The translations under genes and the position numbers were made by a program. From an uncultured Planctomycetales bacterium (GTDB lineage Bacteria; Omnitrophota; Gorgyraeia; Gygaellales; Profunditerraquicolaceae): a stretch of 64,000 bases of DNA. The stretch lies in NCBI GenBank assembly GCA_964427405.1, contig CAYRUB010000008.1, forward strand, positions 31,428 to 95,427, read 5' to 3'. Below, piece by piece: positions 23,869 through 41,187 of the stretch (position 1 is the stretch's first letter; each line of letters opens with the position of its first letter). A model generated the notes under the pieces. It saw nothing but the letters and a program-made list of their open reading frames with translations. It had not been told where the DNA came from and searched no databases.

Positions 23869-23947
23869 AACACCCGCGCAATTGCGCTACCTAGCGCACA
23901 CCGACGCAATACCTATTGGCGTCGAGTGATTGTCAGCGCGGGGTGTT
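23869..23947 (-). promoter_or_regulatory. Stop-codon-anchored structured element (UAACACCCCGCGC…GCGCGGGUGUU on the transcript) between nfnB and the gdhA RBS
   Basis: 11-12-bp outer stem aacacccgcgc/gcgcggggtgtt, inner GCGCAATTGCGC palindrome and cgacgc/gcgtcg hairpin. Its 5' arm includes the nfnB TAA. An AGGAGA RBS follows. A paralogous copy is at 53723-53756. Confidence 0.5.
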
Positions 23948-25364: not shown

Positions 25365-25368
25365 AAAT

Positions 25369-26199
25369 TTAAGATGCTGGAAAAAGGTTACAGATATGTT
25401 TTTCCTGAAGGCTATAAACTTTATTTCTCTTCTCCAGTTCTTCCCAATCAACTCCGTGGCCGTCAAAATCCGGGCCGTCAACACAACTGAATTTTACCTT
25501 ACCCGATACACTCACCCGGCAGCAGCCGCACATACCGGTAGCATCAACCATCAGCGCGTTGAGCGAAACTAAAGTTTTAGTATTATATTCTTTACTAACC
25601 AGCGCCACTCTTTTCATCATAGGAATAGGCCCGACAGAATAAATCAAATCATATTTATCTTTACTCAAAAGCTCCTTTAGCATATCAGTGGTAAAACCTT
25701 TCCTCCCGTAAGAACCATCATCAGTCATAATATAAATCTGATCCGATGCGCTTTTAAGTTCAGCTTCCAGTATAAGCAGGTCTTTATTCCTGGAACCAAG
25801 AATAGTTGTAATATGATTGCCCGCCTCTTTTAATGCGCGGGCAACCGGCAGAATTTCGGCAATCCCTACGCCTCCGCCGACTAAGATTACTTTCCCAAAC
25901 TTTTTTATTTCCGTAGGATGCCCCAAAGGCCCGACCAAAGAGTAAAGTGTATCACCGGGATTTAATTTGCCCAAGCTCTTAGTAGTAAAACCTGCCTCTT
26001 GAAAAATAAGACTCACGACCCCTTTAGTTTTATCGGTATTTACCAAAGTTAAAGGGATTCTCTCGCCTTTTTCGCTAGCCATTAACATCACAAATTGGCC
26101 CGGCAAAGCTTTAGAGGCAATATCACTGGATGCGATATCCAGCTGGGTAATCTTTACGCCGCCAACATCATTAATAACCTTCTTATTGATTATTTTCAT
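25369..26199 (-). CDS. NfnA/PyrK-like ferredoxin-NADP reductase subunit (FAD plus [2Fe-2S])
   Basis: 276 aa. FNR-like fold, and C-terminal CGCCRVSVSGKVKFSCVDGPDFDGH cysteine cluster as in PyrK/SudB. Confidence 0.75.
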   Translation of the reverse strand: MKIINKKVINDVGGVKITQLDIASSDIASKALPGQFVMLMASEKGERIPLTLVNTDKTKGVVSLIFQEAGFTTKSLGKLNPGDTLYSLVGPLGHPTEIKKFGKVILVGGGVGIAEILPVARALKEAGNHITTILGSRNKDLLILEAELKSASDQIYIMTDDGSYGRKGFTTDMLKELLSKDKYDLIYSVGPIPMMKRVALVSKEYNTKTLVSLNALMVDATGMCGCCRVSVSGKVKFSCVDGPDFDGHGVDWEELEKRNKVYSLQEKHICNLFPAS

Positions 26200-26317: not shown

Positions 26318-27538
26318 TTATTTGTCAAGATTTATCTTAACCAGGCCGCCTTTAAACGGTTCGATTACCCGCTCAAGGATACCGGAAAGATAGGCCATCA
26401 GCACGCCATAATTAGTAATCGGCACACCTGCGGCTTTGGCCTTTTCAATACGGTGCATAATTTCCCTGCGGTTAACCATACAGCCTCCGCAGGAAATAAT
26501 CAGTTTATACCTGCTTAGCCCTTCAGGAAAATCCCCTCCTGCAGTAACTTCATAATGCAAATCTTTCTTGGTATAATTCAATAGCCAGGTAGGGATCTTG
26601 GTGCGTCCAATATCCTCCGGCTGCACGTGATGCGTACAGGCCTCGGCAATTAAAATCTCATCGCCATCTTTTAATTCTTCCAAAGCATAAACACCCTGGA
26701 TATAAGCGTTGAGGTCACCCTTATGCCTGGCAAAAACCGTGGAGAAAGAGGTTAAAGGTATATCTTGAGGCAGCATATCGCGCACATCCTCAAAAACCTG
26801 TGAATCAGTAATTACTAATCGCGGCTTTTCTTTTAGCGCTTTAAGACAATCCAATAATTCCGTCTCTTTTGTAACCAGGGCTGTAGCGTTATTATCCAGG
26901 CAATCGCGCATAACCTGCACTTGAGGAAGAATTAACCTGCCCTGAGGCATAGCGTTGTCTATGGGACAGACCAAAACAACCACATCCTTAGGCTTAATTA
27001 TATCTCCTACCAGAGGGATAGGCGACCAATGCCCGGGAGCCAACTCCATAATTTTTGCCTTTAACTCTTTAATCCCTTGCCCTGTCTTAGAACTTACTTT
27101 TATAAAAGCAAGCTTGTTATTTTCTAAATAATCCTGCGCTGCTTTTCCGGCTAATTCAGATTTATTAATTATAAACAAAAACGGCAGCTTTTTGCCCTGA
27201 AAAGTCTTAATCAAATCTTCTTCAAAATTATCAATCAACGTATCCGGCTGGACAACAATCAAACCTACATCGGTTTTCCTTAATACCACTAGCGTTCTTT
27301 TGACTCTTTCCTCTCCCAGAACCCCCTGATCGTCAATGCCGGCAGTATCAATTAACATGCATGGGCCGATAGGCAGAATTTCCATTGCCTTATAAACCGG
27401 ATCCGTGGTTGTTCCGGCAACATCAGAAACAATTGCCGTATCCTGGCCGGTGAACGCATTAATCAAACTGGATTTTCCTGTGTTTCTTTTGCCGAATATG
27501 CCTATATGCAACCTGTTGCTTGCCGGTGTCCTATACAT
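26318..27538 (-). CDS. hydF: [FeFe]-hydrogenase maturation GTPase HydF
   Basis: G1 motif GKRNTGKSSLINAF; C-terminal EACTHH…CGGC FeS-binding motif (CxHx~45HCxxC). Confidence 0.8.
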   Translation of the reverse strand: MYRTPASNRLHIGIFGKRNTGKSSLINAFTGQDTAIVSDVAGTTTDPVYKAMEILPIGPCMLIDTAGIDDQGVLGEERVKRTLVVLRKTDVGLIVVQPDTLIDNFEEDLIKTFQGKKLPFLFIINKSELAGKAAQDYLENNKLAFIKVSSKTGQGIKELKAKIMELAPGHWSPIPLVGDIIKPKDVVVLVCPIDNAMPQGRLILPQVQVMRDCLDNNATALVTKETELLDCLKALKEKPRLVITDSQVFEDVRDMLPQDIPLTSFSTVFARHKGDLNAYIQGVYALEELKDGDEILIAEACTHHVQPEDIGRTKIPTWLLNYTKKDLHYEVTAGGDFPEGLSRYKLIISCGGCMVNRREIMHRIEKAKAAGVPITNYGVLMAYLSGILERVIEPFKGGLVKINLDK

Positions 27539-28601
27539 TCGAATCCACCCTTCCTTGTTTTAAAGAATCAGCTTTTGAATAATCAATAAACCTGCCCAAA
27601 TCTTTAGCCATACCATCCATACAAAAATTACACGCACCTACCGGTTCATTAACGCATTTTTTCTGTGGATATATCTCATAAAGTTTACGATATGGCTGCG
27701 GAGTAAAACTCGGCATTAAAACATTTGCCCCGCATCTTAAACCATCTACCCTGTAATCTTTATCCAGGCTCCCCAAGGCGGTAGTAGCAGGAATATGTGC
27801 ATTTTTAGTGACTATGCGGGTTAAGGCAATAGTTTTTAAACTAAGCAGCGCATCACCTTTTTGCTGACCGGCAAACTGAGTATCCTGATGTGGGATAAAC
27901 GGGCCTATGCCGATCATATCAAAATCACCACGCTTAAAAAATATAATATCCTGCGCAATCGTTTTTAAAGTTTGCCCGGGGAGGCCGATAATATTACCCG
28001 AACCAACCTGATAGCCTAATTTTTTTAAAACCCGCAGGCAATCTAGGCGCTGTTTGAAATCCATTTGCGGATGCATAGATGAATATAAGGCTCCATCGGA
28101 GGTTTCTATTTTTAATAAATACCGGTCAGCCCCGGCCTCCCTCCAGACCTTGTAATCAAGCGCGCTTCTTTCGCCGACGGCAAGGGTGATTGCTATATCA
28201 AAACTGGATTTTATTTCCCGGATAATATCTCTTAACCACGGGATATCCAGGCCGCTATCTTCTCCAGACTGTAAAACTACAGTCTTAATATTACACAAGG
28301 CAAGATACCCAACCGCCTTAAGTAGTTCATCCTTATTCATCCGGTAACGCTCCAATTTACGGTTATTTTTATTCAAGCCGCAATAGAAACACTCCCGGAA
28401 ACAAAAGTTAGAAAATTCTATTATCCCCCGCAAAACAATGCCATCGCCGCAAAACTTTTTTCTTATGTTATCGGCAAAGAAAAATAGTTCATTTAACTCA
28501 TCCTTGCCGCTTAAAGATAAAATCTGCCCTAAATCTTCAAGGTCAGGTAAAGGAGCGTTATGAACTCTATTTAAACACTCATTTAGCTTAGACATACTCA
28601 T
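27531..28601 (-). CDS. hydE: [FeFe]-hydrogenase maturase HydE (radical SAM)
   Basis: CFRECFYCG CxxxCxxC motif near residue 65. 356 aa BioB-like. Overlaps hydG and hydF. Confidence 0.8.
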   Translation of the reverse strand: MSMSKLNECLNRVHNAPLPDLEDLGQILSLSGKDELNELFFFADNIRKKFCGDGIVLRGIIEFSNFCFRECFYCGLNKNNRKLERYRMNKDELLKAVGYLALCNIKTVVLQSGEDSGLDIPWLRDIIREIKSSFDIAITLAVGERSALDYKVWREAGADRYLLKIETSDGALYSSMHPQMDFKQRLDCLRVLKKLGYQVGSGNIIGLPGQTLKTIAQDIIFFKRGDFDMIGIGPFIPHQDTQFAGQQKGDALLSLKTIALTRIVTKNAHIPATTALGSLDKDYRVDGLRCGANVLMPSFTPQPYRKLYEIYPQKKCVNEPVGACNFCMDGMAKDLGRFIDYSKADSLKQGRVDSNV

Positions 28602-30039
28602 CTCTTAAACCAGAATCAACGTGCGCAAAGAAAAGCTTGAGCATCTCCTGTTCAGCAGGCTCTAACTGTTTAGAGTAATGCGCGATCATTTTATAACCCG
28701 TATCTTTAACCAGAGTTGACGCAAAATCATCAAGATATTCTTTAAGCGTAATCAAGGCATTCATGCTGCACTTACCTTTGATTGTCCCGGGCTTAGCCAG
28801 TTTCATAAAAGCCTTGCCGGTTCTTTCTTTGCGGTAACAAGCGGCGCAAAAAGAAGGAATATAGTCGTGGTTGATCAAAGAAGCAACAATTTCTTCAATA
28901 GTACGATTATCACCAAGAGAAAATTGGCTTCCGGCCTTTTCGGAAGCCATGCCGGCTTTTTCGGCAGTTATGCCTGCCTGCCGGTCAGACAGGCCGGCGC
29001 TAGCTTCCCTGTTATCAGAATAGCCGCCGGGCGAAGTAGAAGATTCTGCGCTGACTTGCGAAACTCCCAGACTAAGCAGCGCATCGCGCATCGCGGCAGA
29101 TTCGCGGGTAGACATAATAATACCGGTGTACGGCACAGATAGCCTTAAAACAGCAACCACCTTTTTAAAATCTTCATCGGAAATTTTATACGGCGGATTA
29201 AAAGAAAGTTCCGCCCCCTCTGCCGGTTCAATACGCGGCACGGATATTGTATGCGGCCCGACATTAAACTCCTTCTCCATATGCTCTATATGAGAAAGTA
29301 ACCCTAATGTCTCAAACTTCCAATCATATAAACCATAAAGCGCACCAATACCTATATCATCAATTCCTGCCTCAAATGCCCTATCCGGTGCGCTAATCCG
29401 GTTATCCGGATCACTCTTTGGACCACTGACGTGCATCGCTCGATAGGTTTGATCATGGTAAGTTTCCTGAAAGATTTGAAAAGTTCCAATACCAGAGGCT
29501 TTTAATTTCTTAAAATCAACAACACTTAAAGGCGCACAGTTAACATTTACCCTTTTAATTCTATGTTTACCTACTTGTACAGAATAAATGGCCTTAACCG
29601 CCTGGACATAATAATCAATGTTTGATAAACCTGCGGGAGCTGCTTCACCGCAAACCGCCAATATCCTCTTATGCCCGCGCCTTAAGAGCCACTGAATCTG
29701 CTGGGTAATTTCAGAGGTAGTAAGCGCCTTACGCTTAATACCGGAGTTATTTGATTTAAAACCGCAGTATTGACAGTTATTTACACAGAGATTACTGATA
29801 TAAAGCGGCGCAAAAAGCACCACCCTCCTGCCGTAAATAGCATCTTTAACAAAGCTTGCCGCCTTAAATATTCTCTGGATATATTCCGGATCCTTAACCG
29901 AAAGCAAAACCGCAGACTCTTCCAACGTTAAACGTTGAAGTGATTTTGCCTTTTCCAGGATAGCATCAAGCTTACGGCTATCAAACTTAGCCGCATCAGC
30001 AAGCAAATTATTTATTCTTTCTTCATTGATGTATTTCAT
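28588..30039 (-). CDS. hydG: [FeFe]-hydrogenase maturase HydG (radical SAM, ThiH-like)
   Basis: CVNNCQYCGF radical-SAM motif; C-terminal CAACYRKERTGKAFMKLAKPGTIKGKC (CxxC…C). Contains an A/E/K/G-rich low-complexity insert (AGITAEKAGMASEKAG). Confidence 0.8.
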   Translation of the reverse strand: MKYINEERINNLLADAAKFDSRKLDAILEKAKSLQRLTLEESAVLLSVKDPEYIQRIFKAASFVKDAIYGRRVVLFAPLYISNLCVNNCQYCGFKSNNSGIKRKALTTSEITQQIQWLLRRGHKRILAVCGEAAPAGLSNIDYYVQAVKAIYSVQVGKHRIKRVNVNCAPLSVVDFKKLKASGIGTFQIFQETYHDQTYRAMHVSGPKSDPDNRISAPDRAFEAGIDDIGIGALYGLYDWKFETLGLLSHIEHMEKEFNVGPHTISVPRIEPAEGAELSFNPPYKISDEDFKKVVAVLRLSVPYTGIIMSTRESAAMRDALLSLGVSQVSAESSTSPGGYSDNREASAGLSDRQAGITAEKAGMASEKAGSQFSLGDNRTIEEIVASLINHDYIPSFCAACYRKERTGKAFMKLAKPGTIKGKCSMNALITLKEYLDDFASTLVKDTGYKMIAHYSKQLEPAEQEMLKLFFAHVDSGLRDEYV

Positions 30040-30128: not shown

Positions 30129-30380
30129 TTATTCAGATTTACTTAATCCTGATTTCACCGACACCCCGTTGATCTTGCCCAGCTTGCCGGTTAAGGCGCC
30201 CAAATCATCAGTAGTCGCATTTACAATCAACACGATTACGCTTAATTCTCTCTTTACATGGGGAATGCCCATGCGGCCGATAACTAAATCGCCGAATTCC
30301 GTCAAAATATTGTTAACCAGCGGCGCAGCCTTTTTACGGTTATGAATAATTATCCCCACAAATCCTAAACGCTTTTCCAT
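30129..30380 (-). CDS. Small ACT-like protein of the TM1266 family (putative iron-only hydrogenase system regulator)
   Basis: 83 aa, FVGIIIHNRKKAAPLVNNILTEFGDLVIGRMGIPH. Sits directly upstream of hydG-hydE-hydF, as recalled for TM1266. AAGGAGG RBS. Confidence 0.45.
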   Translation of the reverse strand: MEKRLGFVGIIIHNRKKAAPLVNNILTEFGDLVIGRMGIPHVKRELSVIVLIVNATTDDLGALTGKLGKINGVSVKSGLSKSE

Positions 30381-30556: not shown

Positions 30557-32308
30557 TTATTTTGCGTAAATCGGCCTCGCCTTATAATGCACATGCAGAA
30601 GTTTTTCCGACTTCTCGCTCAAAGGCTTGCCTAAAAATTCCTTATAAATTCTTTTTATGTAAGGGTTCTGATGGCTGCAACGAATCTGCTTTTGCTCATC
30701 GTCTTGATACAAAGCCTGCGCCCTTTTAATCCTTAATTCATCGGTAACCATATAAGGCTGTCCGCCGCCGCCCACGCAGCCTCCCGGACAAGCCATAACC
30801 TCAATAAAATGATACGGCATTTCTTTATTATTAAGCTTGGCATCGCGTACCTTATTTAAAATATATTCCACATTACCCAGACCGTGAGCAATAGCAATCC
30901 TAAGCTTCTTGCCGCCAACTTCAATCTCAGTTTCCTTAACACCCTTTAAGCCGCGGACACTAACAAACTCCACATTCTTTAATTCTTTACCAGTAACAAA
31001 ATAATGCGCAGTCCTTAAAGCTGCTTCCATTACACCGCCGGTAGAACCAAAAATAACCCCTGCTCCGGCATACTCGCCTAAAATACTATCGCACTCCTCA
31101 TCGGACAGAGTATCAAAATCTATGCCTGCCTGTTTAATCATGCGCACCAACTCCCTGGTACAGAGAACTGTATCTATATCCTGAAAGCCTGAAGCAGACA
31201 TCTCGGCATTCCTGGTAATCTCATATTTTTTGGAAGTACAAGGCATAATTGAAACCATAAAAATCTTGGCAGGGTCAATTTTATTCTTCTCTGCATAGTA
31301 CGTCTTGGAGAGTACCCCTAAAATTTCATGCGGGGATTTACAGGAAGAAAAATGTTCAATCATATCCGGATAGAACTTTTCCATAAAATCTACCCAGGAA
31401 GGACAGCAGGAAGTAATTAAAGGCAGCGGCCTATTTCCATGCAAAAGCCTCTCCTCAAATTCACTCGCCTCCTCCATAATCGTAACATCAGCAGCAAAAG
31501 ATGTATCGAAAACCGCATGAAACCCTAAACGCCTTAATAAAGCGTAAAGTTTCTTGGTGAAATTCTTGCCTACATAACCAAATGCTTCTCCTATAGAGAC
31601 CCTCACTGCGGGAGCAATCTGCACCACGCAATATTTATCCGGATCCATCAGCCCCTTCCAGACTTGAGCTGTATGGTCCTGCTCAACAAATGCACCCGTG
31701 GGGCAATGCGCTGAGCACTGGCCGCACTTAACGCATGGAGAATCAGCTAATTGGATATCTCCTGCAGGAGATATCCGGGTTTTCATCCCTCTTTCCAAGA
31801 ATGACAAAGCCCAGACATCCTGTAATTCTTGACATACATGCACGCATCGGCCGCAAAGGATACATTTTTTAGGATCAAGATCAACAGCCTTGGTCGAGGT
31901 ATCTATCGGCAAATCTCTTAAATACTGCGGGAATGATTCATCTTTAATTCCGAAATCCGCGGTAAGCTTTTGCAACTCACACTGGTTATTCCTGGCACAC
32001 TTAAGACAATCATTGGGATGATTTGATAAAATAAGCTCGATTACCGTCCTGCGTATTTCAACTATTTCCGGGTCATGCGTAATAATATCCATCCCTTCAT
32101 CCAGCGGCGTACAACAGGAACGCAACATCTTATGCGAACCTTTATTCTTAACAATACAAATACCGCAGGATGCCGAAGGAGGCAGGTCCGGATGCTTGCA
32201 AAGAGTGGGTATTTTTATCTGCACTCTCTTAGCTGCCTCTAAAATAGTTGTGCCCTCTTCCACTCTTAACAAAATTCCGTTAATTTTTGCCTTAATTATT
32301 TTTGCCAT
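30557..32308 (-). CDS. hndD: [FeFe]-hydrogenase catalytic subunit (HndD/HydA type, N-terminal [2Fe-2S] plus [4Fe-4S] domains)
   Basis: All three H-cluster motifs are present: L1 TSCCPSW, L2 MPCTSKKYE, L3 EVMACPGGCVGGGGQP. N-terminal 2Fe-2S ferredoxin-like domain plus CxxCxxCxxxCP ferredoxin motifs. Confidence 0.85.
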   Translation of the reverse strand: MAKIIKAKINGILLRVEEGTTILEAAKRVQIKIPTLCKHPDLPPSASCGICIVKNKGSHKMLRSCCTPLDEGMDIITHDPEIVEIRRTVIELILSNHPNDCLKCARNNQCELQKLTADFGIKDESFPQYLRDLPIDTSTKAVDLDPKKCILCGRCVHVCQELQDVWALSFLERGMKTRISPAGDIQLADSPCVKCGQCSAHCPTGAFVEQDHTAQVWKGLMDPDKYCVVQIAPAVRVSIGEAFGYVGKNFTKKLYALLRRLGFHAVFDTSFAADVTIMEEASEFEERLLHGNRPLPLITSCCPSWVDFMEKFYPDMIEHFSSCKSPHEILGVLSKTYYAEKNKIDPAKIFMVSIMPCTSKKYEITRNAEMSASGFQDIDTVLCTRELVRMIKQAGIDFDTLSDEECDSILGEYAGAGVIFGSTGGVMEAALRTAHYFVTGKELKNVEFVSVRGLKGVKETEIEVGGKKLRIAIAHGLGNVEYILNKVRDAKLNNKEMPYHFIEVMACPGGCVGGGGQPYMVTDELRIKRAQALYQDDEQKQIRCSHQNPYIKRIYKEFLGKPLSEKSEKLLHVHYKARPIYAK

Positions 32309-32310
32309 AT

Positions 32311-34053
32311 TTACTTTTTATTGATTGCCTTAAATTTACAAACATCAAAACATCGTCCGCACTTTACACATTTATCCTGAATTACGGAATAACCTTCTTC
32401 TTTGCCGCCGATGATTGCCTTTACCGGGCAATTATTAAAACAAATCCCGCAACGTTTACACTTATCCTCGATTATACTATAAGTTACCAGGCTGCTGCAC
32501 TTTCCCGCCGGGCATCTCTTATTTAAAATATGCTCATTATATTCCTGCTCAAAATATTTTAAAGTCGAAAGCACTGGATTTGAAGCAGTCTGGCCTAACC
32601 CGCATAAAGATGCCTTCTGCATAGCCTGAGAAATCCTGCGTAACTGCCCCAGGTCCTCCGGTATACCCTTGCCTTCGGAAATTTTCTTCAGGTAACCAAG
32701 CATCTGGAAGCCACCGATACGGCAGGGAGCGCACTTTCCGCAGGATTCCTCCACGCAGAAACCCAGGTAAAACTTAGGAATATCTACCATACAATCATCA
32801 TCATCCATAACAATCATCCCACCTGAACCCATAATCGAACCTAACTTTTGCAGGTTCTCATAATCCACCGGCGTATCTAAAAGCTCCTCGGGAATAACCC
32901 CTCCGGAAGGCCCGCCTGTCTGCACCGCTTTTATTGGCTTACCAGAGAGCGTGCCTCCACAGATATCCATTACAATCTCTCTTAAGGTTGCCCCCATAGC
33001 AATTTCTACCAACCCTGAATTTTTAACTTTCCCGGTTACCGCAAAGACCTTTGTTCCTTTCGAAGTTTGAGTACCTATTTGCGCAAAATATTTTCCGCCC
33101 TTAATAATAATTACAGGTATATTAGCCAGGGTCTCAACATTATTAATAACCGTAGGCTTACCCCACAATCCTCTTACCGAAGGATACGGCGGACGGGGAT
33201 GCGGAGTCCCTCTCTTGCCCTCTATAGATGAAATCAAAGCGGTTTCTTCACCGCAAACAAATGCGCCGGCACCCAATCTTATATCTATGTCCAAGCTGAA
33301 AGAGCTACCCAGAATATTCTTTCCCAATAGCCCATAATCATAGGCCTGTTTAATTGCTTTCTCAATTCTTTCTACTGCCAGCGGATATTCCGCGCGGATA
33401 TAAAAATACCCTTTAGAAGCCCCGATAGCAAAAGCAGCAATGATCAAACCTTCAATAACCGAATGCGGGTCGCCCTCCAGGATACTCCTATCCATATATG
33501 CTCCGGGATCTCCTTCATCAGCATTACAGATAACAAATTTCTCAGTTGATGCAACCTCACGGGCAAAATTCCATTTCATCCAAGTAGGATAGCCGGCACC
33601 GCCTCTTCCTCTTATACCGCTGATCTTTAACTCTTCAATCAACTTTTGCTGGCCTAATTCACCAAGTACTTTTTTTAAAGCCAGATAACCGCCGCAAGCG
33701 ATATATTCCTCAATACTCTCCGGGTTAATCTTGCCGCAATTGCGCAAAACAATCCGGTGCTGTTTGGCTTTAGGTTTAAAAACCAAATCCTGAATAACTT
33801 CATTTTCCTTTAAAACAGCGTCAATTATTCTTTTAATATCTGCATCTGCAACATTAACATAAGTAATTTTATCCGGGAGGACCTTAATCACCATTCCCTG
33901 ATCATACACACCGATATCCGCAACTCTAACCACCTGGATCTGATCAAGTAAATTAGTCTGGCGAAGATAATCCAACAAGCGGGTATAAAAATCCCGCGTT
34001 TTATCTTCTCCCTTTGAATCCGTATCTTTTACTAAAATAACTTTGGTGTACAT
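32311..34053 (-). CDS. hndC: NuoF-like NAD(P)H-binding flavoprotein subunit (HndC/HydB) with C-terminal 2x[4Fe-4S]
   Basis: GRGGAGYPTWMKW FMN/NADH motif; C-terminal CKRCGICFNNCP and CVKCGRCFDVC. Confidence 0.8.
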   Translation of the reverse strand: MYTKVILVKDTDSKGEDKTRDFYTRLLDYLRQTNLLDQIQVVRVADIGVYDQGMVIKVLPDKITYVNVADADIKRIIDAVLKENEVIQDLVFKPKAKQHRIVLRNCGKINPESIEEYIACGGYLALKKVLGELGQQKLIEELKISGIRGRGGAGYPTWMKWNFAREVASTEKFVICNADEGDPGAYMDRSILEGDPHSVIEGLIIAAFAIGASKGYFYIRAEYPLAVERIEKAIKQAYDYGLLGKNILGSSFSLDIDIRLGAGAFVCGEETALISSIEGKRGTPHPRPPYPSVRGLWGKPTVINNVETLANIPVIIIKGGKYFAQIGTQTSKGTKVFAVTGKVKNSGLVEIAMGATLREIVMDICGGTLSGKPIKAVQTGGPSGGVIPEELLDTPVDYENLQKLGSIMGSGGMIVMDDDDCMVDIPKFYLGFCVEESCGKCAPCRIGGFQMLGYLKKISEGKGIPEDLGQLRRISQAMQKASLCGLGQTASNPVLSTLKYFEQEYNEHILNKRCPAGKCSSLVTYSIIEDKCKRCGICFNNCPVKAIIGGKEEGYSVIQDKCVKCGRCFDVCKFKAINKK

Positions 34054-34070
34054 AAATTACCCCTTAGCCC

Positions 34071-34418
34071 TTAAGCTAAAACCTCAAAAATAAAATCATT
34101 AACCAACCTTTTAGAGATGACATGCTTTTCCAATATCTTGGTTGCCACATCCTTATTTACCGAACCATAAATTACCGACGGTAGCCCTTCCACGTTCACC
34201 TCGACTAACGGTTCAGCATAACAGGCTCCGGCGCAACCGCATTTTTTAATTTCAATCTGCAGGTTCCTCTTTTTAACTTCTTCCGCAAAAAAATTAAAAA
34301 CTTCCTCTGCCCCGGCAGCGATACCACAGCTGCTCATTCCCACTTTAATCCAATCCTTGGGCTTATCGCTGGAAGCCTGGCTCATTTTATCTAAATCATC
34401 GGGAGTCAATTTATTCAT
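34071..34418 (-). CDS. Thioredoxin-like [2Fe-2S] ferredoxin subunit (HndB-like)
   Basis: 115 aa, GMSSCGIAAGAEEV…CGCAGACYAEPLV four-Cys pattern. The same domain is fused at the N-terminus of the 36771-39917 protein. Confidence 0.55.
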   Translation of the reverse strand: MNKLTPDDLDKMSQASSDKPKDWIKVGMSSCGIAAGAEEVFNFFAEEVKKRNLQIEIKKCGCAGACYAEPLVEVNVEGLPSVIYGSVNKDVATKILEKHVISKRLVNDFIFEVLA

Positions 34419-34424
34419 CTTAAG

Positions 34425-34898
34425 CTATTCCTCTTTAATATACTTAGACAAGATATCCGCAACCTCATTCTTCTTCACCTTGCCGTACACTTTATTATCA
34501 ATCATCATTACCGGAGCTAACCCGCAGCAACCTAAACACCTGACGACATCCAGATAGAAGAGCCCATCCTTAGTCGTCTGACCTTCCTTAATACCTAAGA
34601 TGTTCTTTATTTCATTCAGGATTACCTCTGCACCCCGCAGATAACAAGCTGTACCCATACACAAAGCAATCCGGTGCTTGCCGGGAGGAGTTAACTTGAA
34701 AAAATTATAAAAAGTAATTACCTCGTAGATCCTGGCCAAAGGGATATCTAACATTCTGGATAATTCCAGAGACAGCTCCCGCGGCACATAACCATGATGA
34801 TTCTGAATCTCATGCAGGATCATGATTAGGTTACCTTCTTTACCCTTCCATTGCTGGACAAGGCTGACTAATTCCGGATTAAGCTTTTGATGTTCCAT
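34425..34898 (-). CDS. hndA: NuoE-like [2Fe-2S] subunit (HndA/HydC)
   Basis: 157 aa, CMGTACYLRGAE…VRCLGCCGLAPVMMI NuoE cysteine pattern. Confidence 0.75.
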   Translation of the reverse strand: MEHQKLNPELVSLVQQWKGKEGNLIMILHEIQNHHGYVPRELSLELSRMLDIPLARIYEVITFYNFFKLTPPGKHRIALCMGTACYLRGAEVILNEIKNILGIKEGQTTKDGLFYLDVVRCLGCCGLAPVMMIDNKVYGKVKKNEVADILSKYIKEE

Positions 34899-34991: not shown

Positions 34992-36770
34992 CTAAAACGC
35001 TCCTTCTTTTTGTTTATAATGCGTATGCAATAGATGATGCGACTTTTCTCCCAGGGGCTGGCCCAGGAACTCCTTATACAATGCCTGCACCGCCGGGTTT
35101 TCATGTGATTTCCTAAGAGGCTTATTTTTATCCTCGCGATAAATCGCTTCCATTCTTTTTAACCTGATTTCGTTATTTGTAGGAATCGGCTGACCCGCTC
35201 CTCCTAGGCATCCTCCGGGGCAAGTCATAATTTCGATAAAGGCATAAGGAGAACTGCCAAGTTTTACCTCCTCTAATAATACACGCGCCTTACTTAAACT
35301 GCTTGCCACCGCAACCTTTAGTTTTAATCCATCAATATCCACCTCAGCAACCTTAATCCCATCAAGGCCTCTTAACCCAAAAAAATCGAGTTTCTCCAGT
35401 TGCCTGCCAGTAAGCACCTCATAAGCTGTCCTTAAGGCAGCCTCCATTACTCCTCCGGTTGCCCCGAATATTACCGCTGCTCCCGTAGAGATACCTAAAG
35501 GCTCATCAAAATCCTCTCCCTCAAGATTAACAAAATTTACCCCTGCTTCTTTGATCAGGCGGCTGGCCTCCCGGGTGGTCAAAACAAAATCCACGTCATA
35601 AAATGCTTCGCTCTCCTTAAGGCTCAATTCGTCTTTCCAATAATTAAACGCGCTTTTCATCTCCGGGCGTAGCGCTTCAAATTTCTTAGCGGTACATGGC
35701 ATAATTGAAACAACCACTATATTTCTTGGGTCAATATTGAACTTCTTGGCGTAATAAGTCTTGGCAACTGCCCCAAACATCTGCTGGGGAGATTTACAAC
35801 TGGAGATATGCCCTAATATCTCTGGGTAAAAATGCTCGGCGAATTTTATCCATCCCGGAGAACAAGAGGTAATTAACGGAAGGGAACCCTTATTCTTAAT
35901 CCTATCAATTAGCTCATGGCCTTCCTCCATAATCGTCAGGTCTGCGGAGAACTGCGTATCAAAAACTTTGTCAAAACCTAACTTACGTAAACTTTGAGCT
36001 AACTTTCCCGTAACCAAACTGCCTGCGGGCATACCAAACTCTTCGCCAATCGCTGCCCTTACCGCCGGAGCTACTTCCACAACCACAAATTTATTAGGAT
36101 CAGCTAATGCGCGCCAAACTTCTTCCGTAGCATTCTTTTCAGTGATTGCTCCGGTAGGACAGACTAAAAGACACTGGCCGCAGTTAACGCATACGCTATT
36201 TGCTAAACCCTGATCAAAAAATGTAGCTATCTTGCTAGACTTGCCGCGTCCGGAAAAATCAATCGCTTTAACACTTTGGATGGTGGAACAAACGGAAACG
36301 CAGCGGCCGCATAAAATACATTTGTTGGGATCCCGGGATAAAGATACGGAAGTGGTATCCAAAGGCAACTCTATTTTTGCTGTCTTGGGGAATCTCACTT
36401 CTCTTACCCCCATATCAAAAGCCAGTTTTCTCAACTCGCAAGACTGATTTCTGTCGCAGACAAGGCAATCTTTGGGATGCCCTGCCAAAAGCAGCTCTAA
36501 ATTCAACCTTCTGGCATTCCTTACGCGCGGGGTATTAGTAAAAATCTCCATGTCTTCTCTTATAGAAGTAACGCATGAACGCAGCAGGGTTTTAGCTCCC
36601 TTAACTTCCACTAAACAAATTGAACAGGCAGCCTCCTGGTTGATATCTTTTAAATAACAAAGCGTGGGGATATCGATTGCGGCTTTTGCGCAAGCCTCCA
36701 AAATAGTCAGGCCGGCATCACATTCATAAACCTTGCCGTCAATTTTTAAAGAAACTTTTTTTTCTTCCAT
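34992..36770 (-). CDS. Second [FeFe]-hydrogenase large subunit (HydA2) with a Cys-to-Ser change in H-cluster motif L1
   Basis: L1 reads TSCSPGW (codon TCT where the paralog has TGY Cys); L2 MPCTAKKFE and L3 EIMTCPGGCLGGAGQP are intact. Same N-terminal FeS domains as hndD. Confidence 0.8.
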   Translation of the reverse strand: MEEKKVSLKIDGKVYECDAGLTILEACAKAAIDIPTLCYLKDINQEAACSICLVEVKGAKTLLRSCVTSIREDMEIFTNTPRVRNARRLNLELLLAGHPKDCLVCDRNQSCELRKLAFDMGVREVRFPKTAKIELPLDTTSVSLSRDPNKCILCGRCVSVCSTIQSVKAIDFSGRGKSSKIATFFDQGLANSVCVNCGQCLLVCPTGAITEKNATEEVWRALADPNKFVVVEVAPAVRAAIGEEFGMPAGSLVTGKLAQSLRKLGFDKVFDTQFSADLTIMEEGHELIDRIKNKGSLPLITSCSPGWIKFAEHFYPEILGHISSCKSPQQMFGAVAKTYYAKKFNIDPRNIVVVSIMPCTAKKFEALRPEMKSAFNYWKDELSLKESEAFYDVDFVLTTREASRLIKEAGVNFVNLEGEDFDEPLGISTGAAVIFGATGGVMEAALRTAYEVLTGRQLEKLDFFGLRGLDGIKVAEVDIDGLKLKVAVASSLSKARVLLEEVKLGSSPYAFIEIMTCPGGCLGGAGQPIPTNNEIRLKRMEAIYREDKNKPLRKSHENPAVQALYKEFLGQPLGEKSHHLLHTHYKQKEGAF

Positions 36771-39700
36771 TTATTTGCCTTCTTTAACATCACACCTTAA
36801 GCATCTGCTTGCTTCAAAGCGGGCTTGTTTTAGTGATAACCCTAAAGAAACTTCCTTAAAATTATTCCGCCGTTTATTTATTTCCAGCTTTTCGCCATCT
36901 AATTTCTTTGACACCTTTGGTTCTAAGGGAACTTCAGATTTATAAGTAAATTGACGGAATAATTCGGAAAATCTTTCTCTTGAGCTTAACGCCAGGTCAA
37001 TTATCCTGGCAGCTTTCTTACCGTCAGACATTGCCTCAACTGCAGTCGCCGGCCCCATAGCTAAATCGCCGCCGGCATAAACCTTATCCAAGTTGGTTTT
37101 TAAATCAAACCTGCCTGCCTTAACTGTCCCATTCTGGTTAATCAGAATGCCACAACTCTTAATAAATCCTGCGTCTACCTTTTCTCCGATTGCTAGAATT
37201 ACAGTATCGCAAGGAATTTCAAAAACCTCATCAGTAGCTACAGGCCTTCTCCTTCCGGAAAGATCATAATCTCCTAATGTCATCCTGGTTACGATTAAAC
37301 CTTCCAATCTGCCGCGGGAATCCCCCTGTATGGTTTTAGGGCTGGCTAAAAATATAAACTTAACACCTTCAGATTCGGCCCCTTTAATCTCATCTTTATT
37401 TGCCGGCATATCTGCTTTTTCCCGCCGGTAAACAATGGTCACCTCGCTGCCGAACCTCAAGGCTGTGCGTGCGGCATCCACTGCGACATTACCGGCGCCA
37501 ATAACTACTGTCCTTTTACCGATAAGCGGATCCCTGCCGACTGCCACATCCCCCAGAAAAGCAGTGCCTGATAATACTCCTTTTAAACTTTCTCCCGGAA
37601 TACCCAAACCCATATTTTTATACGCCCCGGTTGCCAACAATACCGCATCCGACTCTTTAATCTTTTTATCTAATTCCTGTGCGCTGATTTTTTTGTTGCA
37701 TAAAATCTTTGCCCCCATCTTTTGCACAAAAGCAATTTCTTTTCTTAATACTGCCTTGGGAAGACGATATTCGGGAATACCATAACGCAAAACCCCGCCG
37801 GCTTCAGGATTAGCTTCATACACGCTCACATCATGGCCAAGCCGGCTAAGATAAAATGCCGCGGTTAAACCGCAGGGGCCTGCACCGATAATAGAAATCT
37901 TCTTGCCGGTCTTTGGCAGCCTTTCTTTGGCTAAGCGCTCAATAATCTTTGCATCTTTGCCGCCTTTATATACCTGATCCGCAATATATCTATGAATTTC
38001 GCCTTGCGAAACCGGATAATCAATATCCTCTCTGCGGCAGCGCATCTTACAATGAAAATGACAAATCCTTCCGCTCGAAGACGGAAAAGGATTATCCCGG
38101 ATAACGCAATCAAAGGCTTCGGCCAATTTGCTTTCTTTAAATAATTCCAGGAATCCCGGGATATTCATATGTAATGGGCAACTATTTTCACAAGGAGAAA
38201 CAAAAAGACCCACACATACCCCGCCGTCACAACGCTGCTCTTTGATATGTTCTTCATATTCGTGCTTAAAATATTTAAGAGTAGTCAGCACGGGATTTGG
38301 ACTGGTTTGCCCTAACCCGCAAAGGGCAGTATCTTTAATCACCGTCCCTAAATCTTCTAAACCCTGAATATCGCCTTGACTGGCTTTACCCTTTGTAATA
38401 TTAGTCAAGATATTTAAGCTTTGGGTCAGGCCTTCCCGGCAAGGCGTACATTTACCACAGGATTCGCTGGTGGTAAACTCCGTAAAATAGCGCGCCACAT
38501 CAACCATGCAATTATCATCATCCATTACCACCATTCCACCAGACCCCATGATCGCCCCCAAAGAGGCCAAGGTTTCATAATCAATCGGAGTATTAAATAA
38601 TGAAGCGGGGATACACCCTCCGGAAGGGCCGCCGCTCTGCACAGCCTTAATTTTTTTATTTGTGCCAGTTCCTGAGCCAATATTATAAATAAGTGTCTGT
38701 AAAGAAGCTCCTAAAGGTAACTCCACCAACCCGGTATTCTTGATCTTACCTACCAGGGAAAAAACTTTAGTTCCAGAGCTATTTTGAGTACCGGTCTGCG
38801 TAAACCAATCAGCGCCTTTTACCATAATAACCGGAATGTTACTCCAGGTTTCCACATTATTAATATTAGTAGGTTTATCCAGATATCCTTTTTGCGCAGG
38901 AAACGGCGGACGGGGATGCGGCCTTCCTGATTTACCCTCAAGCGAAGAAATTAATGCTGTTTCTTCTCCGCAGACAAATGCTCCCGCACCTTCTACCAAT
39001 TTAAGGTCAAAAGAAAAACCGCTATTAAATATATTACCGCCTAATAGGCCAAGCTCGCGGGCATCAGAAATTGCCTTTTTTATCCGCTCTACCGCCAAAG
39101 GATATTCTGCGCGTACATAAATAACACCGCTAGAAGCGCCCATCGCATAAGCGCCGATAATCATCCCCTCTAAAAGCATATGCGGGTCGCTCTCGCTTTC
39201 ATTACGGTTCATATACGCACCGGGATCGCCTTCATCGGCATTACAGATAATATATTTCTCCTCAGCATTCTCTTTGCGCATTAATTCCCATTTTATCCCT
39301 GTAGGAAAACCTGCTCCTCCCCTACCTCTTAGTTTTGATTTCTTCACCTCTGCAATTACAGCTTCCGGTTTAAGATCTGTTAAAACATTCAGCAAGGCCT
39401 GGTATCCGCCTACAGCAATATACTCTTCTATATCTTCGGGGTTAATCAAACCGCAATCCCTTAAAACAATTTTTTTCTGCCATTTAAAAAACGGGATTTC
39501 ATCCCAAGCGGGTATCTGTTCAAACCCCTTACCGTAAGAAACATGTCCAGTAAGATGATCCCATGTCTCAATTTTACATAAAGCCCTTTTAGGATTAATA
39601 TTACTGCTGGATATCTCCCTAACTATAGAATCTGCGTCTTTAGGCAAGACGCGGCTTAAAATAACTAACGGTTTGCCGGGCAAAGTAATATTAACTAAGG

Positions 39701-39917
39701 GCTCCTGAGCGCAAAAACCAAAACAACCTACTTTAGTTAAGACCGCCGGTACTTTTCGTTTTGCAAGCGCAACTTTAAAAGCCTGGAATAATTCCCGCGC
39801 ACCATTTCCAATACCACAAGTCCCCATGCCGACGGCGATACGCACGCATTTAGATAATAACTTCGCTGATCCTTTTTCTTTAATCAGTCGTAAGTCTTCG
39901 GCATTCCTAATAATCAT
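36771..39917 (-). CDS. Fusion protein: thioredoxin-like [2Fe-2S] domain + NuoF-like flavoprotein (HydB) + GltD/NfnB-like FAD/NAD(P) oxidoreductase
   Basis: 1048 aa. N-terminus [14 protein letters not shown]…[25 protein letters not shown] NuoF motif; 2x[4Fe-4S]; C-terminal half [49 protein letters not shown], aligning to nfnB (23946-25364). Confidence 0.75.
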   Translation of the reverse strand: [1048 protein letters not shown]

Positions 39918-40462
39918 TTCTTGATTCTCCGGGAGTTGATGCCTTTTATAATCTTGCGTATTTTCTCCGTAGTCATGCGGCTATAAATATTTCCGTCTAC
40001 CTCAATTACGGGAGCCAGCGCGCACTGGCCAAAACAGGCTACAGTTTTAATCGTGAACTTATTATCTTTGGTAGTCAGGAACGATTTACCATCCTGGCTA
40101 AAATCATCTTCTTTAAAACCGAATAAGTTGATTAAGAAATCCAGCAGGTTTTTTGATCCCCGGGTGTGACAGGCCGTGCCCCGACAGACAATAATTGAAT
40201 GCTCGCCCTGCGGCCTAAGGTTAAAGAAGGCATAGAAAGTAATAATGTTATATATTCTGGATAAAGGTACCTTGGCTTTCCGGGCTATATATTCTAAATC
40301 GCCCTGAGCAAGATATTTATGCTTATTTAATTTCTGGGCATCCTCTAGTATTCCCAGGAGCCTGCCCGGCCTATCTACGTAAAGAGAGATAATTTTATCC
40401 AACTCTACCCTATCCAAACAAGATTTTGTAATATCTTTTTCTTTTAACGCAACCTTACTCAT
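39914..40462 (-). CDS. NuoE-like [2Fe-2S] subunit of the second hydrogenase/Stn-like module
   Basis: 182 aa, CRGTACHTRGS…VACFGQCALAPVIEV. Confidence 0.7.
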   Translation of the reverse strand: MSKVALKEKDITKSCLDRVELDKIISLYVDRPGRLLGILEDAQKLNKHKYLAQGDLEYIARKAKVPLSRIYNIITFYAFFNLRPQGEHSIIVCRGTACHTRGSKNLLDFLINLFGFKEDDFSQDGKSFLTTKDNKFTIKTVACFGQCALAPVIEVDGNIYSRMTTEKIRKIIKGINSRRIKK

Positions 40463-40480: not shown

Positions 40481-41107
40481 TTATTTAGTCTTCTCCGTTA
40501 CATTAACAAAATAAATAAGATTTTCTAATTCAATCTCCAAATTAACATTATTAATAATACAACCTTCGGCGGCTTTAAGCCTTAGCGGCGCAAAATTAAG
40601 TATGCCTTTAATTCCCGAAGTACAGATTAAATCAACAGCCTGCTGGGCAGCTATATCCGGAACAACTAAAATAGCTATACGTATGCCATTAGATTTTATA
40701 AAAGACTTGACCTCCTCTAAAGGCAGGACCGGAACAGGATTAGAACGATTGATCTTAGCCGGGTCAATATCGAAACCGGCAACAATTTTTATGCCTTCTT
40801 TCTCAAATCCCCGATAGCGCATAAGCGCGCTGCCGATATGTCCGGCACCGACAACAATAACCTTCTGTAACTGATCCTTCCCGAGGATGCTGTTTAATTT
40901 CTCAAGCAGCGAATCAATCTGGTAACCTCCTTTTTTATTTCCGGAGATACCAAAAATTGAAAAATCTTTCCTTACCTGGGAAGCGGTGCCCCCTACGGCG
41001 TCTGCCAGGTTATCTGAGAAAACTTTCACAAAACCCAAGGCTTGTAATCTGTAAAGAGCGTTTTTATATCGGGAAAGCCGAATGATGCAGTTTTTATTAG
41101 TAATCAT
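40481..41107 (-). CDS. rex: Redox-sensing transcriptional repressor Rex
   Basis: 208 aa. N-terminal winged-helix RLSRYKNALYRL and Rossmann VIVVGAGHIGSAL NADH-binding domain. Confidence 0.8.
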   Translation of the reverse strand: MITNKNCIIRLSRYKNALYRLQALGFVKVFSDNLADAVGGTASQVRKDFSIFGISGNKKGGYQIDSLLEKLNSILGKDQLQKVIVVGAGHIGSALMRYRGFEKEGIKIVAGFDIDPAKINRSNPVPVLPLEEVKSFIKSNGIRIAILVVPDIAAQQAVDLICTSGIKGILNFAPLRLKAAEGCIINNVNLEIELENLIYFVNVTEKTK

Positions 41108-41109
41108 AT

Positions 41110-41127
41110 TGTTCTATTTTTCACAAT
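41110..41127. promoter_or_regulatory. Candidate Rex operator (TTGTTCTATTTTTCACAA) directly upstream of the rex ATG
   Basis: 14/18 match to the TTGTGAAatatTTCACAA consensus, with a perfect TTCACAA right half-site. Confidence 0.4.
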
Positions 41128-41187
41128 AACAAGACCAATATAACATTTCTGGTTTATTTGTCAAGAATATTTTTTAATTAAGTGATA

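Follow-up and report, generated by a model that had tools for sequence, protein, structure and literature searches.

A natural serine at the L1 cluster-ligand position of an M3-type [FeFe]-hydrogenase subunit encoded beside a NuoF::GltD fusion

Described hydrogenases and bifurcating complexes closest to the locus

The second cysteine of the L1 motif of [FeFe]-hydrogenases is one of the residues that bind the [4Fe-4S] part of the H-cluster, as had been claimed in the first-pass annotation of this DNA and as is explicit for Cys299 of T. kivui HydA and for Ser301, its replacement in A. woodii HydA1 (Katsyv et al., 2023, PMC10021017). The A. woodii enzyme is active with a normal H-cluster: the FTIR signature of HydABC is normal, its activity is similar to that of the cysteine-type T. 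kivui enzyme, and Ser301 was modelled as a ligand of [4Fe-4S]H from cryo-EM maps (Katsyv et al., 2023, PMC10021017). The replacement of cysteine by serine is thus not new but a natural variant previously reported for A. woodii HydA1, and Kertess et al. (2017, PMC5855289) noted serine at the L1 ligand position in approximately 20% of [FeFe]-hydrogenase sequences. When the same position was changed to serine by engineering in Chlamydomonas HydA1 (CrHydA1 C115S), however, binding of the [4Fe-4S] cluster and all activity were lost (Kertess et al., 2017, PMC5855289). As this variant is dead although natural serine enzymes exist, are conserved and, in A. woodii, are active, tolerance of serine depends on context.

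Hydrogenases with a GltD-type neighbour are placed by HydDB in group A2, "glutamate synthase-linked (putative)", which is recognised by a GltD, GltA or "putative oxidoreductase" domain in the neighbouring protein; the 2016 rule for this group asks for a neighbour with GltD "but not NuoF". Group A2 was described as functionally uncharacterised and is still so described in a 2026 survey, though the group is common. A related module is found in the Bfu-type complexes StnABC and NfnABC (8OH5, 9BOV, 9N5U), which combine a HydB/HydC-like bifurcating core with an NfnL/GltD-like NADPH module. There the GltD-like module is located on the BfuA (NuoG-like) subunit, where it replaces the hydrogenase as mid-potential input.

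The hydA2 cluster and its H-cluster motifs

The stretch of DNA analysed (64,000 nt, hereafter the window) contains two [FeFe]-hydrogenase gene clusters on the minus strand, together with genes for all three H-cluster maturases, HydE, HydF and HydG, within positions 26318-30039 (TIGR03956, TIGR03955 and the HydF domains; Table 1). Translation of the hydA2 ORF contains GSLPLITSCSPGWIKF, with the L1 context LPLITSCSPGW, and the serine codon TCT can be read directly. The position first given for this codon (approximately 35851-35853) lies inside L1 but is about 8 nt off, those bases belonging to the Gly and Trp codons. L2 and L3 were, as the first annotation had it, intact in HydA2, and L1 was canonical in the paralogue hndD (30557-32308), which reads LITSCCPSW.

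Table 1. Features of the two hydrogenase gene clusters, with positions in the window
Feature	Position	Strand	Description and basis
hydF	26318-27538	-	Pfam HydF_dimer, HydF_tetramer
hydE	27531-28601	-	NCBIfam TIGR03959/TIGR03955/TIGR03956 set
hydG	28588-30039	-	NCBIfam TIGR03959/TIGR03955/TIGR03956 set
TM1266-family regulator	30129-30380	-	NCBIfam TIGR03959/TIGR03955/TIGR03956 set
hndABCD-type hydrogenase operon, paralogous	30557-34898	-	NuoE-like subunit, small subunit, NuoF with ferredoxin-like C-terminus, HydA with TSCCPSW
hydA2	34992-36770	-	592 aa, M3-type [FeFe]-hydrogenase catalytic subunit
L3 motif EIMTCPGGCLGGAGQP	35187-35234 (read 35234-35187)	-	Cys517, ligand; Cys521, bridging ligand; sequence
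Clade-specific insertion SAFNYWKDELSLKES	35610-35654	-	about 15 residues (approximately 373-387), after L2; alignment
L2 motif MPCTAKKFE	35676-35702 (read 35702-35676)	-	Cys359, cluster ligand; sequence
L1 motif TSCSPGW	35850-35870	-	residues 301-307; sequence, alignment with A. woodii HydA1 ITSCSPGW and T. kivui HydA FTSCCPSW
Ser304 codon TCT	35859-35861 (read 35861-35859)	-	sequence
hydB2, GltD/NfnL-like part	36771-38201	-	residues 573-1048; Pfam Fer4_20, Pyr_redox_2; NCBIfam PRK12771, PRK12814
hydB2, NuoF/HydB part	38202-39917	-	residues 1-572; Pfam Complex1_51K, NADH_4Fe-4S; PDB matches
hydC2	39914-40462	-	NuoE/HydC-type [2Fe-2S] thioredoxin-like subunit; Pfam 2Fe-2S_thioredx 1.1e-38
rex	40481-41107	-	redox-sensing repressor family, head of cluster; Pfam Put_DNA-bind_N + CoA_binding
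Candidate Rex-box-like palindrome TTGTTCTATTTTTCACAA	41109-41126	-	one mismatch; after promoter match, just upstream of rex; sequence scan
Sigma-70-like promoter match TTGACA-16-TATATT	41164-41137	-	11/12, best of the region; sequence scan

HydA2 starts with an N-terminal [2Fe-2S] domain, continues through a NuoG-type [4Fe-4S] and a 2x[4Fe-4S] domain into the H-domain and ends in a small-subunit-like tail, with Pfam matches to Fe_hyd_lg_C (PF02906, 7e-93, over the whole profile length), Fe_hyd_SSU (PF02256, 5e-28), Fer2_4 and NADH-G_4Fe-4S_3. It scores 516 bits against TIGR02512 (cut-off 406) and 865.4 bits against NCBIfam NF040763 for group A6 (curated cut-off 765), a model to which the cysteine-type paralogue scores lower, at 791.7 bits. 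Among structures, T. kivui HydA (PDB 8A6T) is the nearest relative by sequence (8a6t_A, 1.7e-192), followed by A. woodii HydA1 (7q4v_A, 2.5e-190, aligned along its full length). Both share the architecture and the types of partner subunit with HydA2, namely a NuoF-like HydB and a NuoE-like HydC. A. woodii HydA1 also shares the intact L2 and L3 and the sequence ITSCSPGW, its Ser301 corresponding to Ser304, whereas T. kivui HydA differs in having TSCCPSW with the ligand Cys299, a plain HydB and no insertion after L2.

Within L1 of HydA2, Cys303 corresponds to the proton-relay cysteine (C299 of CpI) and Ser304 stands in place of the [4Fe-4S]H ligand cysteine (C300 of CpI). The strict two-cysteine pattern TSCCPxW is therefore not matched, the relay cysteine being retained and the ligand cysteine replaced, while the consensus patterns MPCxxKxxE of L2 and ExMxCxxGCxxG of L3 are matched by MPCTAKKFE and EIMTCPGGCLGG, respectively. 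Alignment to 7q4v_A and the columns of 230 H-domains gave the pattern of the natural serine-ligated enzymes, with serine at the L1 ligand column and the other three cysteine ligands and the relay cysteine all present. Judging from the aligned sequence, the H-cluster ligands outside the Ser304 site and the proton-relay residues of HydA2 are intact. Since A. woodii HydA1 departs from TSCCPxW in the same way and is active, the strict pattern is invalid as a criterion of exclusion.

Conservation of the serine and alternative explanations

All 120 closest homologues of HydA2 (69-100% identity) carry serine, in the motif TSCSP[GA]W, so that the orthologue alignment proposed earlier as a check came out in favour of a conserved serine rather than a uniform cysteine. 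Serine was also present in 91 of 98 HydA genes from 80 species-level GTDB loci of many phyla (Omnitrophota, Bacteroidota, Ignavibacteriota, Spirochaetota, Acidobacteriota, Verrucomicrobiota, Planctomycetota and Bacillota), and in 25 of 150 diverse [FeFe]-hydrogenase representatives (50%-identity clusters). The 91 genes use all six serine codons (TCG 35, TCA 18, TCT 15, AGC 10, TCC 9, AGT 4). In the 230 H-domains, the only cysteine columns conserved in the serine and cysteine groups alike were 303, 359, 517 and 521 and the non-ligand column 325, with the L2 column at 100% in both groups, and this column analysis found no compensating cysteine exclusive to the serine-type sequences. Across the serine clade, L2, L3, the relay Cys303 and the bridging Cys521 are approximately 100% conserved. 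These sequence comparisons establish Ser304 as a real and ancient residue on which purifying selection acts. A single origin of the serine was considered and found to be unsupported, a crude neighbour-joining tree giving one large clade (91 of 92 with serine) and scattered serine lineages including A. woodii; approximately 17 parsimony changes between cysteine and serine were counted on this tree, a figure inflated by tree error.

As the serine variant has a precedent in an active enzyme of solved structure, it signals neither a dead enzyme nor a sequencing error. The precedent of A. woodii, the frequency of serine among known sequences, the retention of every other catalytic residue, the lack of a sensory domain and the adjacency of hydE, hydF and hydG make it most likely that HydA2 is a working hydrogenase. 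It is very probably a group A (A3/A6, M3-type) [FeFe]-hydrogenase capable of catalysis, whose [4Fe-4S] subcluster would have the conserved Ser304 as its fourth ligand, as in A. woodii HydA1. Function is here transferred by analogy, because A. woodii HydA1 is approximately 55% identical in the H-domain and lies outside the main serine clade of the neighbour-joining tree. The chance that the serine instead reflects a sequencing or assembly artefact, a single-base change of TGT to TCT in the window as first suggested, is negligible. Its sole support is that one base separates the two codons, and against it stand the conservation in all of the closest homologues, the orthologue codons AGC and AGT, which are more than one step from the codon in the window, and the recovery of the identical protein with TCT from one JGI and two ENA assemblies, all three independent, despite 23 synonymous differences from the window gene.

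It is improbable, though less so than an artefact, that HydA2 is non-catalytic or weakly catalytic and acts as an H2 sensor or as an electron-transfer scaffold for the NuoF::GltD protein, with the cysteine-type HndABCD carrying out the H2 chemistry. The canonical operon immediately downstream could in principle encode the only active hydrogenase, the engineered algal variant is inactive, Bfu-type complexes can function with non-hydrogenase input modules (Stn, NfnABC), and the present complex carries an NADPH-type input module of its own. However, A. woodii HydA1 has the identical motif and is fully active, conservation of L2, L3, Cys303 and Cys521 to such a degree over wide phylogenetic distances is unexpected for a scaffold, and StnC and NfnA, the known non-hydrogenase inputs of Bfu complexes, have lost the entire H-domain. 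For the same reason, and due to the location of their GltD on the NuoG-like subunit, HydA2 was rejected as a degenerate subunit of a Stn-type transhydrogenase. The sensory or regulatory role that had been raised for HydA2 is also countered by its retained relay cysteine and other H-cluster residues, by its score above the NF040763 cut-off and by the Pfam search, in which HydA2 showed no signalling domain, whether PAS, kinase or other; its neighbours are redox subunits, and neither mark of sensory group C (HydS-type) is present, these being a C-terminal signalling domain such as PAS and linkage to genes for a kinase, a phosphatase or chemotaxis. A swap of ligands, with Cys303 binding the [4Fe-4S] cluster, Ser304 being no ligand and the proton pathway altered, is more improbable still. 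Adjacent residues in a strand or loop generally face different directions, which argues against such a swap. The idea draws on a suggestion of Kertess et al. (2017, PMC5855289) for the C115A variant, in which the neighbouring Cys114 might stand in as ligand, but the modelled serine ligand, canonical FTIR signature and high activity of the A. woodii enzyme are hard to square with loss of the relay cysteine. Returning to Ser304 as the ligand, its O-gamma would bind a cluster iron in the way modelled for A. woodii. Of the earlier expectation that serine would alter or abolish catalysis, the second half does not stand, as A. woodii HydABC with ITSCSPGW shows a normal H-cluster and cysteine-type activity; subtle tuning by Ser304 is possible, and its effect would be a modest one on cluster potential, bias or maturation without loss of function.

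In annotation, TSCSPxW should accordingly not be taken as the sign of a broken L1, as it occurs in approximately one sixth to one fifth of group A [FeFe]-hydrogenases, one of them with proven activity, and filters demanding TSCCP would wrongly drop a large clade of many phyla. The inactivity of the engineered algal enzyme set against the conservation of natural serine enzymes shows that tolerance of an oxygen ligand at the H-cluster is decided by its second-sphere context. Natural pairs of serine and cysteine paralogues lying side by side, as in the window, are numerous and offer ready material for explaining this tolerance.

The NuoF::GltD partner and the putative complex

The protein encoded directly upstream of hydA2, described at first as a NuoF::GltD fusion, is indeed a 1048-aa ORF joining a NuoF-type flavoprotein to a GltD/NfnB-type module. 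Residues 1-572 contain an N-terminal thioredoxin-like region, an FMN/NAD(H) site, an N3-type [4Fe-4S] site and a terminal RCxxxxC linker, and match NfnB (9n5u_B, 1.8e-194) and HydB (7q4v_B, 2.4e-178). The GltD-like part contains a 2x[4Fe-4S] domain (Fer4_20), a FAD site (GAGPCG) and an NADPH-type site (GAGNVA...VYRR) and matches the GltD-like domains of 9bov_A, 9n5u_A and 8oh5_C. Residues 527-1045 score 445 bits against PRK12771 and 423 bits against PRK12814, values under the full-length cut-offs of these models because the protein is matched in part only. The ferredoxin-like C-terminal domain of canonical HydB, with clusters B3 and B4, is missing: NADH_4Fe-4S (473-557) and RCxxxxC are followed by Fer4_20 and Pyr_redox_2, and the Fer4 pair at 527-577 of the HndC of the window has no counterpart. 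A. woodii HydB, in contrast, has the normal ferredoxin-like domain and lacks the GltD module. In T. kivui, deletion of this domain, the putative ferredoxin site, abolished bifurcation.

Among HydA2 orthologues the fusion lies nearly always directly upstream, and it is conserved in 58 complete loci, as is the adjacency of a NuoF-like HydB and a NuoE-like HydC. The insertion after L2, absent from A. woodii HydA1, T. kivui HydA and the HndD of the window, was found in 58 of 67 HydA beside a GltD-bearing upstream ORF (a complete NuoF::GltD fusion or one interrupted by a contig end) and in none of 17 beside a plain NuoF. Serine is not needed for the GltD linkage, a notion refuted by 11 serine-type HydA adjoining a plain NuoF and by the GltD-linked form P0160, in which GltD is inserted into HydA and, unlike in HydA2, the L1 cysteine is kept. 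With regard to the HydDB rule, the hydA2 locus has the GltD-type neighbour of group A2, but this neighbour also contains a NuoF region (Complex1_51K, nuoF_fam), which makes the locus an A2/A3 hybrid by definition.

It is expected that HydA2 joins HydC2 and HydB2::GltD in a HydABC-like heterotrimer, of which it would be the H2 module. In HydB2 the ferredoxin-like C-terminal domain has been exchanged for an NfnL/GltD-type 2x[4Fe-4S]-FAD-NADP(H) module, so that the complex most likely couples H2 to both nicotinamide cofactors, to NAD(H) through the FMN site and to NADP(H) through the FAD site; any stoichiometry of this coupling would be a matter of inference. Compared with StnABC and NfnABC, HydB carries the GltD module at its C-terminus, where the ferredoxin-like B3/B4 domain would otherwise be, and the complex keeps its H-cluster subunit. 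A speculative and rather unlikely extension is that serine-type HydA with the insertion of about 15 residues and HydB::GltD represent a widespread hydrogenase class in which an NADP(H) branch replaces the ferredoxin branch of HydABC, H2 is coupled to both NAD(H) and NADP(H), and the serine tunes the H-cluster potential. If so, such a class, spread over Omnitrophota, Bacteroidota, Ignavibacteriota, Spirochaetota and other phyla, could, for example, confurcate NADH and NADPH to H2 without ferredoxin, or yield NADPH from H2. No biochemical characterisation of HydB::GltD hydrogenases was found in literature searches, the sole mention being a predicted HydB with a GltA domain in archaeal hybrid complexes, and a term search of the Bfu survey of Schut (2022) found no mention. 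The partner complex, which belongs to the glutamate-synthase-linked hydrogenases, is the more interesting part of the locus.

It should also be noted that the cluster is headed by rex and preceded by a candidate Rex-box-like palindrome, which in the operator search was at chance level (0.82 matches expected). The hydA2 cluster is probably transcribed from a promoter controlled by Rex.

The serine in the L1 motif of HydA2

The minus-strand ORF at 34992-36770 encodes HydA2, a 592-aa [FeFe]-hydrogenase in which the L1 region reads ...GSLPLITSCSPGWIKFAEHF..., with TCT as the codon for residue 304. The first-pass annotation had reported Ser in place of the second L1 Cys, intact L2 and L3 motifs and a Cys-type L1 in the paralogue at 30557-32308. 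It was correct on the Ser in every substantive respect, and the other points were borne out by MPCTAKKFE, EIMTCPGGCLGGAGQP and the paralogue's LITSCCPSW; its estimate of the codon position was about 8 nt off (see table). In Pfam, the H-domain of HydA2 is complete (Fe_hyd_lg_C, 7e-93) and is accompanied by a small-subunit-like tail and N-terminal [2Fe-2S], NuoG-type [4Fe-4S] and 2x[4Fe-4S] domains, with no signalling domain found. Against the NCBIfam model NF040763 ('NADH-dependent [FeFe] hydrogenase, group A6'), HydA2 scored 865 bits, above the curated cut-off of 765 bits and above the Cys-type paralogue (792 bits). Its top solved relative is the catalytic subunit of Thermoanaerobacter kivui HydABC (8a6t_A, 1.7e-192), with that of Acetobacterium woodii HydABC (7q4v_A, 2.5e-190) also among the best, both being electron-bifurcating complexes.

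Contigs from three further samples (one JGI, two ENA) encode a protein identical to HydA2; there the gene shows 23 differences from the window, all synonymous, and retains TCT for Ser304. The orthologue alignment that had been proposed as a check found TSCSP[GA]W in 120/120 of the closest database homologues (69-100% identity) and Ser in 91 of the 98 HydA genes at 80 loci from GTDB species representatives of Omnitrophota, Bacteroidota, Ignavibacteriota, Spirochaetota, Acidobacteriota, Verrucomicrobiota, Planctomycetota, Lentisphaerota and Bacillota. These 91 genes use every one of the six Ser codons (TCG 35, TCA 18, TCT 15, AGC 10, TCC 9, AGT 4), which can only mean long-term selection for Ser. 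The alternative of a sequencing error is thus refuted by the three samples, the homologues and the codons. The Ser is a real feature and a documented natural variant.

Nor is Ser at this ligand position new. When aligned to HydA2 with HMMER, A. woodii HydA1 reads LPMITSCSPGWIKF, with Ser at the same L1 place, and T. kivui HydA reads FPMFTSCCPSWI against TSCSPGW in HydA2. [TS]SCSP was present in 25/150 of the best representatives of 50%-identity clusters, and TSCSPGW had already been noted in confurcating hydrogenases by a 2013 Melainabacteria paper. HydA2 is a fresh case of the known variant, from an Omnitrophota-like genome. It had been suggested that Ser would alter or abolish catalysis. The premise about the chemistry holds, and the concern was reasonable: when every cluster ligand of Chlamydomonas HydA1 was mutated (C114 and C115 being the first and second L1 Cys), the C115A/D/S proteins carried little [4Fe-4S] cluster, failed to incorporate the [2Fe] subcluster and had no activity (Kertess et al., 2017; PMC5855289). 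However, by analogy with A. woodii HydA1, the substitution is tolerated in its natural context (Katsyv et al., 2023; PMC10021017).

When 230 H-domains were aligned, high Cys conservation was confined to columns 303 (relay), 359, 517 and 521 (ligands) and 325 (non-ligand), in the Ser and Cys groups alike, and therefore no extra Cys compensates for the lost ligand in the Ser group. The proton-pathway residues, in the established CpI numbering, are kept as well, with E279 and E282 in TIMEEGHE and R286, S319 and K358 within ELIDR, ISSCKSP and MPCTAKK, respectively. A crude neighbour-joining tree, built without the motif columns, placed HydA2 in a large clade (91/92 Ser); 17 Ser sequences, A. woodii HydA1 among them, lay outside it. 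Parsimony on this crude tree gave ~17 Cys/Ser changes, and exchange at the L1 ligand position appears to be recurrent.

The NuoF::GltD partner and its gene cluster

Features of the HydA2 locus and its surroundings (window numbering)
Feature	Position	Strand	Remarks
L1 heptad of HydA2	35870-35850	-	read from sequence
Ser304 codon TCT	35861-35859	-	read from sequence
L2 MPCTAKKFE	35702-35676	-	intact; read from sequence
L3 EIMTCPGGCLGGAGQP	35234-35187	-	intact; read from sequence
Post-L2 insertion SAFNYWKDELSLKES	35610-35654	-	~15 residues (HydA2 ~373-387), directly after L2
HydB::GltD fusion	36771-39917	-	GltD/NfnL-like 2x[4Fe-4S]-FAD-NADPH module in place of ferredoxin-like C-terminal domain
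NfnA-like gene	25369-26199	-	DHODB_Fe-S_bind; directly downstream of hydF
NfnB/GltD-like gene	23946-25484	-	downstream of hydF
Glutamate dehydrogenase	22507-23865	-	downstream of hydF
642-aa ORF	20461-22389	-	between glutamate dehydrogenase and HD-domain protein
Sigma-70-like promoter match	41109-41164		TTGACA-16-TATATT, extended -10; region's best; with palindrome

Immediately upstream of the HydA2 orthologues lie a NuoE-like gene and then a ~1050-aa HydB/NuoF core fused to a GltD/NfnL-like module, an arrangement seen at 58 complete loci plus 12 interrupted by a contig end. In the window, the NuoF core ends in an RCxxxxC linker and is followed by Fer4_20 and Pyr_redox_2, with an FAD-type motif (GAGPCG) and an NADPH-type motif (GAGNVA...VYRR) in the GltD part. 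These domains occupy the position of the 2x[4Fe-4S] ferredoxin-like domain in adjacent HndC, the NuoF subunit of the paralogous operon. Bfu enzymes are proposed to interact with ferredoxin at the C-terminal domain of HydB (clusters B3 and B4), and T. kivui HydABC no longer bifurcates when this domain is deleted. Nearest to the GltD-like part are the NADPH modules of Bfu-type transhydrogenases (9bov_A, 9n5u_A, 8oh5_C), which carry the module on the other subunit, whereas here it is on HydB. At least 58 loci from many phyla keep the fusion beside a Ser-type HydA. No biochemical characterisation of the fusion was found in the literature searched; among archaeal hybrid hydrogenases, a glutamate-synthase domain on HydB has been recorded but not characterised. 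By HydDB rules the HydA2 locus is an A2/A3 hybrid, group A2 being functionally uncharacterised according to a 2026 survey, and the partner architecture is the part deserving follow-up.

Judged from these sequences, Ser is not tied to GltD: 11 Ser-type HydA are preceded by plain NuoF, and the relative P0160 has GltD inserted in HydA with the L1 Cys retained. At the same loci, 6/6 scorable Cys-type paralogues are preceded by plain NuoF. Of the 67 HydA whose upstream ORF bears GltD (as a complete or contig-cut fusion), 58 have the post-L2 insertion, against 0/17 beside plain NuoF; the insertion may form a surface that contacts the extra GltD module.

Directly downstream are the hydG, hydE and hydF maturases and a TM1266-family regulator. 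With the NfnA-like, NfnB/GltD-like and glutamate dehydrogenase genes on the same strand, ~22.5-41.2 kb forms one redox-balancing cluster. For the NfnB/GltD-like gene, the listed GTG start overlaps the preceding ORF and has probably been set too far upstream. The 642-aa ORF had no Pfam match at E <= 1e-8. After the promoter match, immediately ahead of the rex start codon, lies a Rex-box-like palindrome, TTGTTCTATTTTTCACAA, such palindromes being at chance level for the window.

Possible electron route

Ser304 stands at the [4Fe-4S]H ligand position in an otherwise complete catalytic site. By analogy with A. woodii, it would ligate the cluster through oxygen and HydA2 would turn over H2. Domain order suggests a route in which electrons would leave the H-cluster, travel along the HydA clusters to the FMN/NAD(H) site of HydB and continue via the two GltD [4Fe-4S] clusters to the FAD/NADP(H) site. 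Because the ferredoxin domain is replaced, it may be speculated that the complex couples H2 jointly to both NAD(H) and NADP(H). If so, it would act as a redox valve, a speculative role which accords with the Rex gene and the strong promoter-like site that head the cluster and with the downstream NfnAB-like genes and glutamate dehydrogenase.

Further HydA architectures among relatives

A second Ser-type HydA, ~51% identical, lies beside the first in nine Bacteroidales loci (L019, L028, L030, L033, L035, L040, L045, L046 and L057), and the first six of these show the gene ahead of it, which encodes a short NuoF-like partner of ~400 aa. The pair represents a third type of complex, also with TSCSPGW. 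The top-scoring cluster representative, P0121, is 4122 aa long with seven stretches matching HydA2 and no L1 motif recognisable by regex scan; it is a highly unusual multi-hydrogenase polyprotein or else an artefact of gene calling or assembly. Among distant relatives, GltD follows the N-terminal [2Fe-2S] domain of HydA in P0160, HydA is fused with flavodoxin and an FAD-binding domain in P0165 and P0185, and HydA, NuoE and NuoF form one chain in P0168 (Cys) and P0201 (Ser). The same H-domain has repeatedly been recombined with different electron-partner modules.
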